Source: a phage. From it: 64,000 nucleotides of DNA. The first letter of the stretch is position 1; each line of letters begins with the position of its first letter. The stretch lies in the sequence record PZ019086.1. One strand, given 5' to 3'. A program made the position numbers and the translations under genes. This document shows positions 4,399 through 50,869 of the stretch, in pieces. The notes beneath the pieces were generated by a model, which worked only from the letters and a program-made list of their open reading frames with translations, made no database searches and had not been told where the DNA came from.

Positions 4399-4416
4399 AA
4401 AGGGCCGAAGCCCTTT
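4399..4416 (-). terminator. GC stem with CGAA tetraloop at the 3' end of a-gt (terminator or RNA-stability hairpin)
   Basis: aaagggccgaagcccttt palindrome overlapping the a-gt stop. Confidence 0.4.
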
Positions 4417-7774: not shown

Positions 7775-7790
7775 AAGGGCCGAAGCCCTT
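7775..7790 (-). terminator. Stem-loop with CGAA tetraloop
   Basis: aagggccgaagccctt overlapping the stop of ORF 7789-7989. Confidence 0.35.
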
Positions 7791-15524: not shown

Positions 15525-15576
15525 GTTCTTCTCACTTGGTTAATGATTTATACTCCGAGCCATCCTTGGCTTTAAA

Positions 15577-16599
15577 TTACTTAATTAACTGTAAAGCTTG
15601 TTCAAGACGATCCAGGCGATTAACAGATTCTTCCCAAATCCTTTTAGCTTGCTCATATTCTTTCTGCGCTTTATTAGAAATTTCTAGAGCTTCTTTATAA
15701 GCTTTTTCTAATGCAATAACTTCTGGACGAATTTCTACCGGTTCAGGTGAATCGTCAAGACATTCCATTAGTTCCTCAAGGGTAGTTTCTTCTTTAGGAG
15801 TATTCACAATTTCTTCACATTTTTGTTGGTAAATTTCTTTATCAGTCGGTGAGTACGCACACTTTACTTCACGAAGACTAACTACAATTTTATATCCTTC
15901 CCAACCGCATATATTCTTAAAAGGATACGTATGAATATTTTCTACTGTTTCCATACAAAGTAGTGCAGTCTCTAATTGACGAGTTATAGTGCTAGCAATT
16001 GAGAAAAATTTATTAATATTCCTTTGGTTAGTTTCTGGTGTAAAAAATCCATAATTCACAAAAATAGATACTTTATTTTTATCAAGTTCATATTCTTTTA
16101 TGATAATCATATCAGAAGCCAAAGGATGAATTTGACGATAATCGCCATAACATAATTTAGAAGCTGATTTTAGAATCTGTCCTTTGAAAAGCCTGAAATT
16201 ACTAATCCAACGACGAGTAAAAATATTCTCAGGGTCTTCTTTATTATTAAGATGATAAGAATTAACATCACCGAACCAATTATATCCTACTACATCTTTG
16301 GTTCGTTTAATTTCTTTCCCAAAATTACCAAGAATATCTCGATTAACCAAATATGAAAGAAGACGAGACTCTTTAAAGGTTTTCTTGATAACATCTTTAT
16401 CTACACGGCTAGAAATTTTACGAATTTCATGAATAAATTTAACAGAAGAAACAATACTTGCATCAACACTATTGAGCCATTGATTGATAATAGAAATAAC
16501 GCTATTTTGGCCAAACATCGGTATAGCTTTATCATCAATAACGCTATTGAATGATTTGATATATTCGTTACGAGTCATATTAATCTCCTCAGATACCAC
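15577..16599 (-). CDS. Hypothetical protein, member 2 of the tandem paralog array
   Basis: 340 aa; N-terminus ...MTRNEYIKSF; C-terminal coiled coil. Confidence 0.6.
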   Translation of the reverse strand: MVSEEINMTRNEYIKSFNSVIDDKAIPMFGQNSVISIINQWLNSVDASIVSSVKFIHEIRKISSRVDKDVIKKTFKESRLLSYLVNRDILGNFGKEIKRTKDVVGYNWFGDVNSYHLNNKEDPENIFTRRWISNFRLFKGQILKSASKLCYGDYRQIHPLASDMIIIKEYELDKNKVSIFVNYGFFTPETNQRNINKFFSIASTITRQLETALLCMETVENIHTYPFKNICGWEGYKIVVSLREVKCAYSPTDKEIYQQKCEEIVNTPKEETTLEELMECLDDSPEPVEIRPEVIALEKAYKEALEISNKAQKEYEQAKRIWEESVNRLDRLEQALQLIK

Positions 16600-16618
16600 A
16601 TCCTTGTGGCAAAGTAAA

Positions 16619-17641
16619 CTAGTTCAGTGCATTTAGTGCATTGTTCAGTTTAGAACGTTGCTTTGTCAGATTTTGAACCCTTGACTGAGCTTGTTCTAAC
16701 ACCTTTTCAGCTTCTAGCACTTCATTGGTCGCTTTAACTAATTCAGCATCTACTGCTTTAAGAGACTTCTCAATCGCGTCAGCGTGCCATTTTTCTACAG
16801 GTTTAAAATTTGAATTTTCAGTAGGAAGAAAACTCACTTTATTAAGTTTACATGCATCTATATTGCTTGAGCTATACATCCAAAATTTAGGATCGTTTGA
16901 TAAGTAATTGGATAAATTTAAGTTATCTTGCACTTCCTGCTTTTTCTCTTGCGGGACTTCGTCCTTTCTCAAAAAATCGTATTTAAATGAAACGATCATA
17001 TCAAGTTCATACGTTGTTGTGTCTAATTTAAATCGTTCAAAACGAGGTAAAATCTTAGATTGAACAGCAGCAACAACATCCATATACTTAAATGCTTCTG
17101 TCAACTGTGATTTAAGGCATTCACAAATTGAAAGAGAATTTTTTGTATTAGGTTTAAAGCTAATTCGTGCAGTTCTGTTATTTTCTTTTAATGGTCTTAC
17201 TTCCATCTGAAGAGTATAACCATCAAATTTCAGGTTCTTTAAGTTAATATCAGAACCTTTCAATCGACTCGCAGTTGATAAAATTTGCTTTAATTGTCTA
17301 CGGAACAGAGCAATAAATCTCCATTCAATACGATAATGATTTGGATTGAAAAATCCAGATGATAAATCGACCTTACTTTGACCAACGCCTTGAACAAATA
17401 GAGGATTTTTATAATCAATAGTTTTACAGAAATCTGTGAGCTGCTCACGAGCCGTCATTTGTGTAATATACCCCGCTTTACTAAAATTACTCACCCATTC
17501 ACTGCTATTTAGATATTTAAAGTGATGAATAGCACGATTAACTTTATCAGGGTCTAAATTATTTTCACACAAAAATGTCATAACATCACGAGTATCGCTG
17601 GCATTACGAACCATATCTTCAATTTGAGAACGAGTTTTCAT
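16619..17641 (-). CDS. Hypothetical protein, member 3 of the tandem paralog array
   Basis: 340 aa; N-terminus MKTRSQIEDM; C-terminal coiled coil. Confidence 0.6.
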   Translation of the reverse strand: MKTRSQIEDMVRNASDTRDVMTFLCENNLDPDKVNRAIHHFKYLNSSEWVSNFSKAGYITQMTAREQLTDFCKTIDYKNPLFVQGVGQSKVDLSSGFFNPNHYRIEWRFIALFRRQLKQILSTASRLKGSDINLKNLKFDGYTLQMEVRPLKENNRTARISFKPNTKNSLSICECLKSQLTEAFKYMDVVAAVQSKILPRFERFKLDTTTYELDMIVSFKYDFLRKDEVPQEKKQEVQDNLNLSNYLSNDPKFWMYSSSNIDACKLNKVSFLPTENSNFKPVEKWHADAIEKSLKAVDAELVKATNEVLEAEKVLEQAQSRVQNLTKQRSKLNNALNALN

Positions 17642-18949: not shown

Positions 18950-19004
18950 AATAATCTCAATTAAAAGGGCTTAGAACCATTATACCATCCTTGGTATAAA
19001 GCGG

Positions 19005-20994: not shown

Positions 20995-21045
20995 TAGGGT
21001 AATAGTATCACACTACTACCCTACTGTAAACAATTTATTTTAATG
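20995..21045 (-). promoter_or_regulatory. T4-type early promoter
   Basis: ttgatagggtaatagtatcac...tgtaaac motif. Confidence 0.45.
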
Positions 21046-36266: not shown

Positions 36267-36283
36267 AGGGGCCGAAGCCCCTT
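36267..36283 (-). terminator. Stem-loop with CGAA tetraloop
   Basis: aggggccgaagcccctt. Confidence 0.4.
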
Positions 36284-36924: not shown

Positions 36925-37101
36925 TTATACTCCAAAGAGTTTATAAACTATTTCGACATCGCCTTTTGCTGCTTTATAACCTTCAGCCCAAGATACAACC
37001 GAGTTTTTATCTGAAGATTCAAAGTCAGGCATTGGACTTTCACCAATATTCACACAATATGTTTCTTCATTTTCATCGAACCAAATAATTAAAGTAGTCA
37101 T
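36925..37101 (-). CDS. Small acidic ORF (58 aa, below the ORF-track cutoff)
   Basis: ATG preceded by GGAGTAAACAAA; hand translation MTTLIIWFDENEETYCVNIGESPMPDFESSDKNSVVSWAEGYKAAKGDVEIVYKLFGV. Confidence 0.4.
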   Translation of the reverse strand: MTTLIIWFDENEETYCVNIGESPMPDFESSDKNSVVSWAEGYKAAKGDVEIVYKLFGV

Positions 37102-37127
37102 TTTGTTTACTCCTCTGTGGTTGATAA

Positions 37128-37175
37128 GTCTATAGTATCACCATCCTTGGTGCTTGTACATCATTATTTTAATTT
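37128..37175 (-). promoter_or_regulatory. Promoter-like element carrying the CCAAGGATGG motif next to TGATACTAT (minus strand)
   Basis: Motif recurs at 15562, 18987 and 37151. Confidence 0.3.
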
Positions 37176-37501
37176 TTCCAACTTAACAACTTGTAGTGTC
37201 CTTCATTAATACGTGGTTTATCCCAAGAAATACTAATATATGATTCACTGTCAATAGAAGTCGCCGGGTTTTTCTCTACCGTAAGACCTTCACTTTCCAG
37301 CCATTCAATAGTATTTGCGCATAAATCGGAAGAACACCTCATCGGAAACCGGCAAGATTTTTCACCTTTAGCTGCAGTGTTATACATCTTTTCCAAAATA
37401 CGCTTTTGCACGTTTTTAAAAATAGTTTCAGCAGATTCTTCAGATTTTTTATTCAGTTCAGTATAAAGACTCATAACATTCTTCTCATTAATAGGGCTCA
37501 T
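37169..37501 (-). CDS. Hypothetical protein
   Basis: 110-aa ORF. Confidence 0.5.
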   Translation of the reverse strand: MSPINEKNVMSLYTELNKKSEESAETIFKNVQKRILEKMYNTAAKGEKSCRFPMRCSSDLCANTIEWLESEGLTVEKNPATSIDSESYISISWDKPRINEGHYKLLSWKN

Positions 37502-37531
37502 AATATCTTAATCATGAGCCCATGTAAACAA

Positions 37532-37807
37532 TTATTTCATATTATTGAAATATTCTTCTGCAATTTCATCATTATCGTGGTAAACTTTAGAAGACAGTTT
37601 AACATAACCTTCTGCTGTGAACATGTTAATCACAACTTTTACAGTATACCACTGGCCGTCTTCATTACCCATTACTGCGTAAGTTTCAAACATCGGATGG
37701 TCAGGACCGATAACTTTAATATCATTCACTGTACGACCGAAATCTTCTGAAACACATTTCATAAAGAAGTTGAACAGTTCGCCGTAATTATCCATTTTAT
37801 TCTCCAA
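37532..37807 (-). CDS. Hypothetical protein
   Basis: 91-aa ORF with strong upstream promoter motif. Confidence 0.5.
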   Translation of the reverse strand: MENKMDNYGELFNFFMKCVSEDFGRTVNDIKVIGPDHPMFETYAVMGNEDGQWYTVKVVINMFTAEGYVKLSSKVYHDNDEIAEEYFNNMK

Positions 37808-37824
37808 GTTGTTTTCTGTATCAG

Positions 37825-37895
37825 TAGTTGATAGTTGTATAGTACCATAGAAGAACAGGAATGTAAACAGTTTTGTGAAAAATTTTTTAAAAAGT
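37825..37895 (-). promoter_or_regulatory. T4-type early promoter with A/T-rich upstream element
   Basis: Minus strand aaaaatttttcacaaaactGTTTACAttcctgttcttctatggTACTATac. Confidence 0.55.
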
Positions 37896-38081
37896 TTTAG
37901 GGAATTCTAGGGCAGGGAGGGGCAATTAAAGGATAGGATAATATATTATAAATGGTAGAAACTAAATGATGCCTAGAGAGGTCCAAAAAGGCCTAGATAC
38001 CAAAAAGCCCCAACCTTTCGGTCGGGGCTAAGCCTTGCGGCAACCTTGTCGGGGTTCCACCTGCTAAGGCAAGTGTTTGTA

Positions 38082-38344: not shown

Positions 38345-38420
38345 CTGGTCGAGGCAGTAGGGATCGAACCTACGACCTAGGACTTAGAAGGTCCTTGCTC
38401 TTCCTTCTGAGCTATGCCTC
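38345..38420 (-). tRNA. tRNA-Arg (anticodon UCU), CCA encoded
   Basis: Hand-folded cloverleaf; anticodon loop CTTCTAA; T-loop GGTTCGATCC. Confidence 0.8.
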
Positions 38421-38424
38421 GGAT

Positions 38425-38499
38425 TTGGCGGACGTGATAGGATTCGAACCTATAACCAATCGCTTAACAGGCGATCGCTCTGCCATTGAGCTACACATC
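38425..38499 (-). tRNA. tRNA-Asn (anticodon GUU), CCA encoded
   Basis: Acceptor GGATGTG/CACGTCC; anticodon stem ATCGC/GCGAT; loop CTGTTAA. Confidence 0.7.
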
Positions 38500-38503
38500 C
38501 AAA

Positions 38504-38590
38504 TTGGTGGGGAGTGATGGAGTCGAACCACCCGAGTCGCAATGACAATGGATTTACAGTCCACACCGCTACCTCTACGGGATAACTCCC
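38504..38590 (-). tRNA. tRNA-Tyr (anticodon GUA), long variable arm, CCA encoded
   Basis: Acceptor GGGGAGT/ACTCCCC; anticodon loop CTGTAAA; 87 nt. Confidence 0.7.
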
Positions 38591-38603
38591 CTTAATTCTT
38601 AAT

Positions 38604-38678
38604 TTGGTGGCCCTGGGTGGAATTGAACCACCATCTGGCGATTATGAGTCGCTTGCTTGAACCTTCCAGCTACAGGGC
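38604..38678 (-). tRNA. tRNA with anticodon CAU (Ile lysidine-type or elongator Met)
   Basis: Acceptor GGCCCTG/CAGGGCC; anticodon loop CTCATAA. Confidence 0.7.
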
Positions 38679-38679
38679 C

Positions 38680-38755
38680 TTGGTGCTGATTGACGGAATC
38701 GAACCGCCGACCTTCTCATTACAAGTGAGTTGCTCTACCTACTGAGCTAAATCAG
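38680..38755 (-). tRNA. tRNA-Thr (anticodon UGU)
   Basis: Acceptor GCTGATT/AATCAGC; anticodon loop CTTGTAA. Confidence 0.8.
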
Positions 38756-38760
38756 CAAAA

Positions 38761-38850
38761 CTGGCGGAGGCGATAGGATTCGAACCTATGAGTCGCTGGA
38801 GCGACTGCCGGTTTTCAAGACCGGTGCATTAAACCACTCTGCCACGCCTC
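38761..38850 (-). tRNA. tRNA-Ser (anticodon UGA), long variable arm
   Basis: Acceptor GGAGGCG/CGCCTCC; anticodon loop CTTGAAA; 90 nt. Confidence 0.8.
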
Positions 38851-38852
38851 CA

Positions 38853-38926
38853 GTCTCCGTGGCAGGATTTGAACCTGCGACATTCTGCTCCCAAAGCAGA
38901 CGCTCTACCAAACTGAGCTACACGGA
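38853..38926 (-). tRNA. tRNA-Pro (anticodon UGG), CCA not encoded
   Basis: Acceptor CTCCGTG/CACGGAG; anticodon loop TTTGGGA; the next tRNA follows immediately with no CCA. Confidence 0.75.
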
Positions 38927-38936
38927 GTAAATTAAA

Positions 38937-39010
<74 letters not shown>

Positions 39011-39015
39011 CAAAT

Positions 39016-39102
39016 TTGGTGCGAGAAGTGGGACTCGAACCCACAAGGAAATCATTCCGCAGCATTTTAAGTGCTGTGCCTTTACCAATTTGACCATTCT
39101 CG
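39016..39102 (-). tRNA. tRNA-Leu (anticodon UAA), long variable arm
   Basis: Acceptor GCGAGAA/TTCTCGC; anticodon loop CTTAAAA; 87 nt. Confidence 0.8.
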
Positions 39103-39103
39103 C

Positions 39104-39176
39104 GCTGGGAATAAAGGACTCGAACCTTTGCATCTAGCAGTCAAAGTGCTATGCCTTACCAACTTGGCTAATTCCC
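39104..39176 (-). tRNA. tRNA-Gln (anticodon UUG), CCA not encoded
   Basis: Acceptor TGGGAAT/ATTCCCA; anticodon loop CTTTGAC. Confidence 0.75.
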
Positions 39177-39265
39177 AATTATTAACAAAGGCTCTCAAAC
39201 AAGAACCCTTGATGATAGAGGGGGTATTAATCAGTGCGATATAAGTTAATAATAACACATAATTC

Positions 39266-48889: not shown

Positions 48890-50869
48890 ATGACAACTCC
48901 TGTAAATTATCAATTAACAAGAACAGCAAATGCTATTCCCGAGATATTCGTCGGGGGTACATTTGCTGAAATAAAACAAAACCTCATTGAATGGCTTAAT
49001 GGTCAAAATGAATTTTTGGATTATGATTTTGAAGGCTCAAGATTAAACGTTCTGTGCGACCTTTTGGCTTATAATACATTATACATTCAGCAGTTTGGTA
49101 ATGCTGCCGTGTATGAAAGCTTTATGCGTACTGCTAATTTGCGTAGTTCAGTAGTTCAAGCGGCACAAGATAATGGATATTTACCTACTTCAAAATCAGC
49201 TGCTCAAACTGAAATTATGCTAACTTGTACAGATGCATTGAATAGAAATTACATTACTATTCCTCGTGGTACTCGCTTTTTAGCATATGCAAAGGATACT
49301 TCCGTTAATCCTTACAACTTTGTATCTACCGAAGATGTTATTGCTATTCGCGATAAAAATAACCAATATTTTCCGCGTTTAAAATTGGCCCAGGGACGTA
49401 TAGTAAGAACTGAAATCATTTATGATAAATTAACGCCTATTATCATTTATGATAAAAATATTGATAGAAACCAGGTTAAATTATATGTTGATGGAGCGGA
49501 ATGGATTAACTGGACGAGAAAGTCAATGGTTCATGCTGGTTCAACATCAACGATTTACTATATGCGTGAAACTATTGATGGAAACACTGAATTCTATTTT
49601 GGTGAAGGTGAAATTTCTGTTAATGCGGCAGAAGGAGCATTGACTGCTAATTATATTGGGGGTCTTAAACCTACCCAGAACTCTACGATTGTTATTGAGT
49701 ACATCAGTACTAACGGTGCAGATGCGAATGGCGCAGTCGGATTTTCATATGCAGATACATTAACAAATATAACTGTCATCAACATTAATGAAAATCCAAA
49801 CGATGACCCAGATTTTGTTGGGGCAGATGGCGGCGGTGATCCAGAAGATATTGAACGTATTCGCGAATTGGGTACTATTAAACGCGAAACCCAGCAACGC
49901 TGTGTAACTGCGACTGACTATGATACATTCGTTTCAGAGAGATTTGGTTCTATTATTCAAGCAGTTCAGACTTTCACTGATTCTACTAAACCTGGTTATG
50001 CATTTATTGCTGCTAAACCTAAATCAGGGTTGTATTTAACTACTGTACAGCGCGAAGATATTAAAAATTATCTCAAAGACTATAATTTAGCTCCTATTAC
50101 ACCGTCAATTATTTCTCCTAATTATCTTTTTATTAAGACTAATTTAAAAGTCACATATGCTTTAAATAAGCTGCAAGAATCCGAACAGTGGCTCGAAGGT
50201 CAAATAATTGATAAAATTGATCGTTATTATACCGAAGATGTAGAAATTTTTAACTCATCTTTCGCTAAATCTAAGATGTTGACATATGTAGATGATGCAG
50301 ATCATTCTATCATTGGTTCATCAGCGACAATTCAAATTGTTCGTGAAGTACAAAACTTCTATAAAACGCCTGAAGCAGGTATTAAATACAATAATCAAAT
50401 AAAAGATCGTTCTATGGAATCTAATACGTTTTCATTTAATTCTGGACGAAAGGTTGTAAATCCTGATACTGGTTTAGAAGAAGATGTATTATATGACGTT
50501 CGCATAGTATCAACAGACCGAGATTCTAAAGGAATTGGTAAAGTTATTATTGGTCCATTTGCTTCTGGCGATGTTACAGAAAATGAAAACATTCAGCCGT
50601 ATACAGGCAACGATTTTAACAAATTAGCAAATTCTGATGGACGCGACAAATACTATGTTATCGGTGAAATAAATTATCCAGCTGATGTGATTTATTGGAA
50701 TATCGCTAAAATTAATTTAACATCTGAAAAATTTGAAGTTCAGACTATTGAATTATATTCTGACCCAACCGATGATGTTATCTTTACTCGCGATGGTTCG
50801 CTGATTGTATTTGAAAATGACTTACGTCCACAATACTTAACTATCGATTTGGAGCCTATATCACAATGA
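48890..50869 (+). CDS. 6: Baseplate wedge protein gp6
   Basis: 659 aa; GAGGAA Shine-Dalgarno; size and order match T4. Confidence 0.9.
   Translation: MTTPVNYQLTRTANAIPEIFVGGTFAEIKQNLIEWLNGQNEFLDYDFEGSRLNVLCDLLAYNTLYIQQFGNAAVYESFMRTANLRSSVVQAAQDNGYLPTSKSAAQTEIMLTCTDALNRNYITIPRGTRFLAYAKDTSVNPYNFVSTEDVIAIRDKNNQYFPRLKLAQGRIVRTEIIYDKLTPIIIYDKNIDRNQVKLYVDGAEWINWTRKSMVHAGSTSTIYYMRETIDGNTEFYFGEGEISVNAAEGALTANYIGGLKPTQNSTIVIEYISTNGADANGAVGFSYADTLTNITVININENPNDDPDFVGADGGGDPEDIERIRELGTIKRETQQRCVTATDYDTFVSERFGSIIQAVQTFTDSTKPGYAFIAAKPKSGLYLTTVQREDIKNYLKDYNLAPITPSIISPNYLFIKTNLKVTYALNKLQESEQWLEGQIIDKIDRYYTEDVEIFNSSFAKSKMLTYVDDADHSIIGSSATIQIVREVQNFYKTPEAGIKYNNQIKDRSMESNTFSFNSGRKVVNPDTGLEEDVLYDVRIVSTDRDSKGIGKVIIGPFASGDVTENENIQPYTGNDFNKLANSDGRDKYYVIGEINYPADVIYWNIAKINLTSEKFEVQTIELYSDPTDDVIFTRDGSLIVFENDLRPQYLTIDLEPISQ

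Follow-up and report, generated by a model that had tools for sequence, protein, structure and literature searches.

A covarying hairpin with an invariant AAGGA loop in promoter spacers of T-even-type phages and its resemblance to CsrA-binding hairpins

In phages RB49 and phi1, intergenic cassettes known as PeSLs combine a strong sigma-70-type promoter with a stem-loop (Arbiol 2010; PMC2839356), one of them equalling rrnB T1 as a terminator when assayed with a reporter (PMC2839356), and the description has been extended to the PST/T4 pair and to MotA-type versions, the PmSLs (Comeau 2014; PMC4122927). In T4, the start regions of e, 49, soc and I-TevI form hairpins that need a 5′ arm or a whole structure lying upstream of an internal promoter and hence can be folded by long upstream transcripts only (PMC3014915). 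Extension of early transcripts is a further route by which middle genes of T4 are transcribed (PMC2988021). On the host side, the RNA regulator CsrA is known to recognize CAGGA(U/A/C)G in the hairpin loops of CsrB repeats, and the consensus obtained by SELEX, RUACARGGAUGU, presents a hexaloop ARGGAU with a C-G closing pair on a short stem (PMC7652899). A distance of 10–63 nucleotides (nt) between two sites can be bridged by a dimer of CsrA, as in the glgC leader. Here, these systems are compared with a short repeated hairpin element found in a 64-kb stretch of phage DNA (record PZ019086.1, 64,000 nt, the whole of which is called the window in the following), which represents a Tequatrovirus with about 96% identity to Ec_MI-02 and pSs-1.

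The core of the element is the 10-mer CCATCCTTGG on the plus strand. The exact sequence is present at three sites (15560–15569, 18985–18994 and 37141–37150, referred to as sites 1–3), at all of which the minus strand, where it reads CCAAGGATGG, is the coding one. By chance, 0.06 copies are expected in the window, and none of 100 dinucleotide-preserving shuffles gave three. An earlier note on this DNA, made from the letters alone, had already pointed to the three sites, correctly except for the third coordinate, which was about 10 nt off (37141, not 37151). Its two further statements, that a −10-like box follows each minus-strand copy and that each copy lies upstream of a different gene, hold as well: TATAAAT is found 7 nt on at site 1, TATAAT directly at site 2 and TGATACTAT directly at site 3, preceding nrdC.3, the membrane protein gene nrdC.7 and a 58-aa open reading frame (ORF), respectively. 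In the search for the 10-mer proposed there, all three exact copies of the window turned out to be intergenic. The list of family members was incomplete, however, since a fourth one, CCACAAGGATGTGG at 16596–16609 (minus strand), had been overlooked. All four window copies are confined to intergenic gaps of 44 to 67 nt in the nrdC.x and e.x regions. The whole T4 genome contains exactly two copies of the 10-mer, at the positions equivalent to sites 1 and 2.

Inspection of the flanks shows that the 10-mer represents the loop and the closing pairs of a small hairpin of the form N2-5-CC[AAGGAN]GG-N'2-5, which is located in the spacer between the −35 element (or MotA box) and the −10 element. In the window, hairpin 1 (AGCCA-AGGA-TGGCT, 15558–15571, minus strand; −5.1 kcal/mol when folded alone) lies between nrdC.4 and nrdC.3 and is identical in T4 (at 49901), while hairpin 2 (TTATACCA-AGGA-TGGTATAA, 18980–18999, minus strand) lies between nrdC.8 and nrdC.7 and is identical in T4 (53344) and JS10 (46534); the 51 nt around the latter are conserved with at least 99% identity in 473 of 588 phage records. 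Hairpin 3 (CACCA-AGGA-TGGTG, 37139–37152, minus strand) separates an e.7-like gene from the 58-aa ORF, which is absent from T4, and is identical in RB69 (at 72541). Hairpin 4 (CCACA-AGGA-TGTGG, 16596–16609, minus strand), between nrdC.5 and nrdC.4, is a longer variant that is also found in the T4 promoters before nrdC.4 and rIIA.1. The comparison with relatives is based on a small sample of 7 viral and 10 metagenomic related loci, comprising three genera plus a few metagenomic contigs, and demonstrates the presence of the element in the T-even-type genera Tequatrovirus, Mosigvirus and Dhakavirus. RB69 (Mosigvirus) contributes the hairpins CAACCA..TGGTTG, CATCC[AAGGAC]GGATG, ACCC[AAGGAC]GGGT and AACACC[AAGGAA]GGTGTT, JS10 (Dhakavirus) CATCCA..TGGATG and a metagenomic relative (L147) TATC[AAGGAT]GATA.

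From an alignment of 11 distinct copies, evaluated against shuffles and against controls with slid pairing partners, it is evident that stem and loop evolve differently. Stem positions can pair in 87.9% of cases compared to 57.2% in the shuffles, and the covariation score of 0.718 (0.18 for shuffles) was reached by none of 500 shuffles, while the slid-partner controls did not exceed 0.32. In all 11 copies, C, AAGGA and G are invariant, whereas the stem pairs are of three or four types, and the variable loop position is occupied by U, C or A but never by G. Compensatory change is also seen between orthologous sites, as the hairpin after nrdC.8 reads TATACCA..TGGTATA in T4 and JS10 but ACCC..GGGT in RB69. 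At the denA/rnlA site, a CCACA..TGTGG hairpin with a GGA loop is kept although the surrounding promoter is of the MotA type in T4 and of the early type in RB69. Predicted folds present AGGA or AAGGAN in the loop on stems of 4–8 bp. Stabilities of the hairpins folded alone are between −4.4 and −7.4 kcal/mol, with one outlier at −1.1 kcal/mol, and z-scores in context are between −0.5 and −2.1. The combination of an invariant loop with a covarying stem suggests a hairpin that is read by a sequence-specific factor rather than a plain terminator.

The promoters around the hairpins, which were called by consensus matches and whose activity is thus predicted from sequence, are of three kinds in the window. 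Hairpin 3 is enclosed by an early sigma-70-type promoter (37132–37160, minus strand) with TGTACA (37155–37160), a 17-nt spacer and TACTAT (37132–37137) bearing the TGn extension as TGA-TACTAT. Site 2 is a middle promoter of the MotA type (18979–19003, minus strand; CGCTTTA at 18997–19003 and TATAAT at 18979–18984), in which the hairpin takes up the 12-nt spacer, and the annotation of phage SA20RB gives a T4-type middle promoter and also a terminator at this position. Site 1 has only a degenerate promoter (15546–15576, minus strand), in which TTTAAA (15571–15576) is separated by 18 nt from TATAAA(T) (15546–15552). T4 late (gp55) promoters carry TATAAATA at −10. The sequence TATAAATC at site 1 matches this late-promoter box in seven of eight positions, while no match is present at sites 2 and 3. 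Around hairpin 4, a −35 element (TTTACT, 16613–16618) is retained, and TATAAT, which follows the counterpart hairpin in T4 (50958), has been taken out by a 17-nt deletion before nrdC.4 (window 16576–16621, minus strand, compared with T4). Consequently, 15 nt now separate this hairpin from the downstream GGA in the Shine-Dalgarno sequence (GAGGAG) of nrdC.4.

In RB69 and JS10, the motif is found within intact early promoters with TTTACA-N17-TATAAT spacing, for example GTTTACA-A-CCAAGGATGG-TTGGAG-TATAAT; this arrangement of GTTTACA, hairpin, GGAG and TATAAT precedes nrdC.3 in RB69 and nrdC.4 in JS10. Taken together, the locations in these two phages are upstream of nrdC.3, nrdC.5, motB.1, motB, alc and nrdC.4, besides a MotA-type promoter after nrdC.8. 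All copies are placed in promoter spacers on the sense strand. There are four in the window, four in T4 along with a further relative that has a 7-nt loop (at 167072), two in JS10 (first 50 kb) and at least seven in RB69. The same association is obtained when starting from the 8-mer CAAGGANG, which occurs 17 times in T4, 20 times in RB69 (127.6 kb) and 8 times in JS10 (first 50 kb) and is flanked by at least three extra pairs in 4, 7 and 2 cases, respectively. All 13 flanked copies are in sense-strand promoter spacers, while not a single unflanked copy is.

The distance between motif and −10 element varies from 1 to 8 nt over the window and its relatives, which rules out a fixed contact with RNA polymerase. 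Accordingly, the suggestion of the earlier note that the motif marks a distinct promoter class is not sustained, as its three copies belong to three promoter types and their distance to the −10 element is variable. The comparison with MotA-dependent middle promoters, which had likewise been proposed, turned out positive for site 2 and negative for sites 1 and 3, which lack a MotA box; the motif was hence rejected as a feature of MotA promoters. The other ideas put forward there, binding of a regulator or an RNA signal built around AAGGA, may apply at the RNA level, where the motif forms part of a covarying hairpin and its loop fits the CsrA consensus. Other candidates were discarded as well. 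Mini-ORFs starting from the ATG in the motif would comprise only 2–9 codons, often stopping in the TAA of the −10 box, have no usable Shine-Dalgarno spacing and lose the ATG in the ACG and AAG variants. No known RNA family is involved, since Rfam at gathering score gives only tRNAs in the window. Copies with one or two mismatches to CCATCCTTGG do not extend the family, as their number in the window (36 versus 30.9 expected) is at chance level and they are located in coding DNA. A scan of viral contigs for CCAAGGATGG-N0-9-TATAA had no T4-like contig among the matches listed, only unrelated random ones.

In its layout, the element belongs to the promoter-stem-loop cassettes of the PeSL/PmSL kind, a layout that has already been described. 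It is intergenic in a hyperplastic region, lying after the stop codon of one gene and ahead of the Shine-Dalgarno sequence and ATG of the next, and contains an embedded early or MotA promoter with correct spacing (apart from the degenerate site 1 and the copy at 16596, which lacks a −10 element). Its stem-loop is supported by covariation and placed as described for PeSLs (PMC2839356), and indels and recombination between copies are shared features too. Differences concern the hairpin itself. RB49 and phi1 cassettes have G/C-rich stems and unrelated loops, whereas here weak and variable stems carry one and the same loop, C-AAGGA-N-G, across three genera, and the terminator activity of the present hairpins is predicted to be weak. 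The PST/T4 cassettes, in turn, were described by their authors as AGNA-loop-TCNT stem-loops upstream of the promoter, which is unlike the hairpin reported here. We consider it probable that the element is a PeSL-type hairpin in a promoter spacer whose loop is under selection.

Recombination at the motif has left a direct trace in phage TadeuszReichstein (Bas43, MZ501106.1 123517–123582; locus L149 1518–1583, minus strand), which lacks nrdC.7, nrdC.6, nrdC.5 and nrdC.4. Here, nrdC.8 is followed by ...cataaccgctttata-CCAAGGATGG-ctcggagtataaac... and the ATG of nrdC.3, so that the left flank of site 2 continues into the right flank of site 1. Between them, 3.4 kb have been deleted, with the junction falling inside the 10-mer, and this junction is unique among 586 matching records. 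As a side effect, shown once, the shared 10-mer also serves as microhomology for deletion and shuffling of the genes between copies. At site 3, a module consisting of e.8, the e.7-like gene, the promoter and the 58-aa ORF (window 36944–37907) is 94.7% identical to RB69 72336–73300, while the adjoining e.6 shows 80% identity to RB69. The module thus looks as if it had been exchanged laterally between genera, and the mosaicism with respect to e.6 is typical of such regions.

The loop offers a clue to what might read the hairpin. C-AAGGA-N-G with U, C or A as the variable base, invariant in the 11 distinct copies, fits the CsrA/CsrB consensus, and CC[AAGGAU]GG presents the same hexaloop as the SELEX ligand with the outer A-U pair replaced by C-G, most phage copies having CCA instead of ACA. 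In T4, CCACAAGGAUGUGG even contains an exact ACAAGGAUGU, found at 2445 and 50960. For direct comparison, CsrB was taken from an E. coli genome and confirmed by Rfam at 382.9 bits. Its hairpins, such as ACACCA-GGA-UGGUGU, CUCCA-GGA-UGGAG, CAUCA-GGA-UGAUG and UCA-AGGA-UGA, are nearly superimposable on those of the phages, and stabilities overlap as well (−1.8 to −5.5 kcal/mol for CsrB). With CsrB repeats and the glgC leader, the element has in common a short hairpin that carries GGA in its loop, the core CA(N)GGA(U/C/A)G and a similar stability. The hairpin GGA is positioned 39–45 nt upstream of the start codon. At 9 of 13 sites, a second GGA is found 29–39 nt downstream in the Shine-Dalgarno sequence, and at the nrdC.4 site of the window it is found 15 nt downstream, an arrangement like that of the glgC leader. 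All these distances are within the 10–63 nt that can be bridged by CsrA, but GGA is common in Shine-Dalgarno sequences anyway. Unlike CsrB, the phage hairpins are dispersed, with about 4–9 copies per genome, instead of forming an array, mostly read CAAGGAUG with one A more than the usual CAGGAUG of CsrB, and are embedded in promoter spacers and therefore presumably part of read-through RNA only. This match between the loop and the CsrA-binding site appears to be previously unreported.

The embedding is central to the mechanism that we propose. Since the hairpin is wholly upstream of the start of the embedded promoter, by at least 14 nt, standard promoter geometry and the biology of T4 imply that it is present only in read-through RNA. 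Transcripts arriving from upstream promoters would carry the hairpin, while those started locally would escape. CsrA, or another reader of GGA loops, could bind to the hairpin on the read-through RNA and alter translation or decay of the neighboring cistron. CsrA might mark this RNA, for example, by bridging to the Shine-Dalgarno sequence 29–39 nt downstream as in the glgC leader, or, equivalently, abundant early read-through RNA might titrate CsrA. The T4 hairpins at e, 49, soc and I-TevI are similar in being specific to read-through RNA. They sequester the downstream Shine-Dalgarno sequence, whereas the present hairpin is self-contained, excludes the real Shine-Dalgarno sequence and stops 14 nt or more short of the start site. 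As a positive control, our hairpin scan recovered the sequestering hairpins of gene 49 (TTCAAA-gagga-TTTGAA; window 12058, T4 46463) and gene e (AATAC-ttaggag-GTATT; window 33984, T4 67007), those of the window being on the minus strand.

For the overall interpretation, a PeSL/PmSL-type hairpin whose loop is recognized by a sequence-specific factor with CsrA as the most likely candidate, we see the balance as about even, judging from sequence comparison. Naming host CsrA as the reader is tentative, and the more specific picture of CsrB-like hairpins in T-even promoter spacers, with CsrA acting on delayed-early read-through RNA only or being soaked up by it, is likewise a possibility rather than an expectation. 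If true, an overlooked link would exist between a global host RNA regulator and gene expression of T4, the reference lytic phage, for which no role of CsrA in expression was found in our literature search. Binding of CsrA to the hairpins would show how the phage tells read-through from locally initiated transcripts, how the spacer of a promoter can, where the genome is very compact, at the same time be an RNA signal, and why the behavior of CsrB is unusual in T4 infection (PMC9697503). Even without CsrA, the clean covarying stem with a conserved loop across genera still stands, as does the Bas43 deletion as a natural, base-resolved case of gene loss via a promoter-stem-loop repeat.

A number of observations weigh against this interpretation. 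With regard to statistics, 724 different 10-mers are present at least three times in the window, and CCATCCTTGG ranks only about 17th by Markov-adjusted P (4.9e-6). Copy number alone is not decisive in view of so many other recurring 10-mers, and the significance of this one rests on its context, namely the intergenic position, the promoter spacers, the complementary flanks and the conservation in other genera. Enrichment of hairpin-flanked copies in T4 is modest (4 versus 1.2 expected, with 3 of 60 simulations reaching 4). With regard to structure, covariation would look the same for a hairpin of RNA, a hairpin of single-stranded DNA and a cruciform, and just two G-U pairs favor RNA. Several RB69 copies (before motB.1, nrdC.3 and nrdC.5) hardly differ over stretches of more than 30 nt and hence are not independent, so that part of the conservation could reflect common descent or gene conversion instead of selection. 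Besides, the element is dispensable in some lineages. In an IMG/VR contig (L008, position 5956; nrdC.3 93% identical), the site 1 copy is changed to CCAAGGATAG and the −10 element to TACAAAT, hairpin and promoter decaying together in this lineage according to the sequence, and the chimeric copy of Bas43 has lost its flank complementarity. As to CsrA, no GGA is present in the Shine-Dalgarno sequences at window sites 1 and 2, nor at RB69 8364, and our literature search found no report linking CsrA to T4 RNA. Moreover, the PeSL hairpins of RB49, a phage of the same host, are G/C-rich without GGA loops, indicating that a connection to CsrA is not general to PeSLs.

Among the competing explanations, a plain PeSL/PmSL stem-loop without dedicated reader survives best, although we still regard it as unlikely. 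Such a structure would attenuate or terminate upstream transcription or protect the upstream 3′ end, its copies being homogenized by recombination or gene conversion. The architecture is indeed that of published PeSLs, including the one terminating like rrnB T1 (PMC2839356), and site 2 is predicted as rho-independent terminator by software in SA20RB. Recombination between copies is shown by the Bas43 deletion, and homogenization would fit the near-identity of the three RB69 copies mentioned above. However, the stabilities and z-scores given above are those of weak stems, and no U tract follows the hairpin at any copy. Furthermore, a plain stem-loop would be expected to keep its stem and drift in the loop, whereas the opposite is seen here, with variation in the stem and none in the loop, in contrast to the RB49 PeSLs with their G/C-rich stems and mutually unrelated loops. 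In the strict sense of an intrinsic, rho-independent terminator, this candidate was rejected, as a U tract is absent, the stems are weak and a simple terminator scan gave no call on the sense strand. On the antisense strand of site 1 (15555–15569, plus strand), the same scan called CCGAGCCATCCTTGG followed by CTTTAAATTA terminator-like, which is probably a by-product of the same palindrome.

An RNA processing signal for the phage endoribonuclease RegB, cutting at the loop GGA-U or at a GGAG after the hairpin and thus separating the cistrons of read-through early RNA, is improbable in our view. RegB cuts GGAG and rarely GGAU, the consensus of strong sites being GGAGRAYARAA, and the enzyme alone cleaves where GGA is unpaired and the fourth base constrained (PMC3014915), which is the geometry of CCA[AGGA]UGG. 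Likewise, the intergenic position in early RNA is reminiscent of RegB sites, and in about half of the copies (T4 site 1, four RB69 copies, JS10 and the metagenomic relative L147) a GGAG follows 2–3 nt after the hairpin, reading GGAGUAUAA(U/A) and hence partially matching the consensus. At window site 1, this GGAG is at 15553–15556 (minus strand), inside the degenerate promoter. Even the loop contains GGAG in the T4 relative at denA/rnlA. In the CAAGGANG family, however, the fourth base is U, C or A and never G, which distinguishes the loop from RegB sites, and copies with GGAC and GGAA still have compensated stems. Near sites 2 and 3, GGAG is missing, and where it stands beside TATAAT it could be a mere part of the sequence of that cassette. 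Our literature search found no usable global map of RegB sites or of T4 transcript ends.

Still somewhat less probable is a Shine-Dalgarno mimic, in which the exposed AAGGA of read-through RNA would base-pair with 16S rRNA at its 3′ end and act as ribosome standby site or decoy for the downstream gene. AAGGA is complementary to the anti-Shine-Dalgarno sequence, the distance of the loop to the start codon is 39–45 nt, and T4 does use read-through-specific hairpins near ribosome-binding sites (e and 49; a pairing at alc was also seen). On the other hand, AAGGAG, in which the G in sixth place would extend the pairing, is never seen, and the invariant closing C-G pair and the invariant CA...G are not explained by pairing with 16S rRNA.

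About equally poor, or slightly poorer, are the prospects of an explanation at the DNA level, according to which the enclosing promoter would be blocked by a cruciform or by a DNA-binding protein, of phage or host, for which the motif is the operator. Every copy is in a promoter spacer, where a bound protein would exclude RNA polymerase, and NNCCA-N4-TGGNN is an interrupted palindrome. But the asymmetric AGGA center does not change, and the outer half-sites vary only in a compensatory manner, opposite to the pattern that a dimeric DNA binder would produce. Palindromes with arms of 5–8 bp extrude poorly, and no candidate protein is known. Finally, chance recurrence or hitch-hiking of a 10-mer without function, although compatible with the many other recurrent 10-mers and with only two exact copies in T4, is very improbable given that all copies are intergenic in promoter spacers, flanks covary and conservation extends over three genera.

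Besides the spacer hairpins with AAGGA loops, pairing of another type was observed in many early promoters, in which the 3′ part of the spacer is complementary to the first transcribed bases across the −10 element, for example GATGAGGTA-gtgatactat-TACCTCATC. Examples, all in minus-strand promoters, are at T4 73938, 73571, 133330, 129917 and 146142, at RB69 72054, 136672 and 165007 and at window 41069, 40703 and 21030. These hairpins represent a PeSL subclass with the stem-loop overlapping the −10 element and are formable in read-through RNA only. The commonest early −10 word of the window, GTGATACTAT (minus strand), representing the extended −10 element of early promoters of the T4 type, is also its most over-represented 10-mer, with five copies at 21002, 25491, 37132, 40675 and 41041 (plus-strand coordinates). 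In the rnlA/alc intergenic region of T4 (136276–136339, minus strand), the Shine-Dalgarno region of alc, GAGGACTT, can pair with the promoter spacer, AAGTCCCTC; from this complementarity, the alc ribosome-binding site could be masked in read-through RNA but not in RNA from the local promoter.

Two other features of the window deserve mention. The sequence GGGCTTCGGCCC (minus strand), forming a G/C stem with a UUCG tetraloop, is present three times, at 4402–4413, 7777–7788 and 36269–36280, and the third copy, between e.6 and e.5, looks like a stable terminator or an RNA-stabilizing hairpin. The tRNA cluster at 38349–39177 (minus strand) comprises ten genes, compared to eight in the corresponding T4 region.

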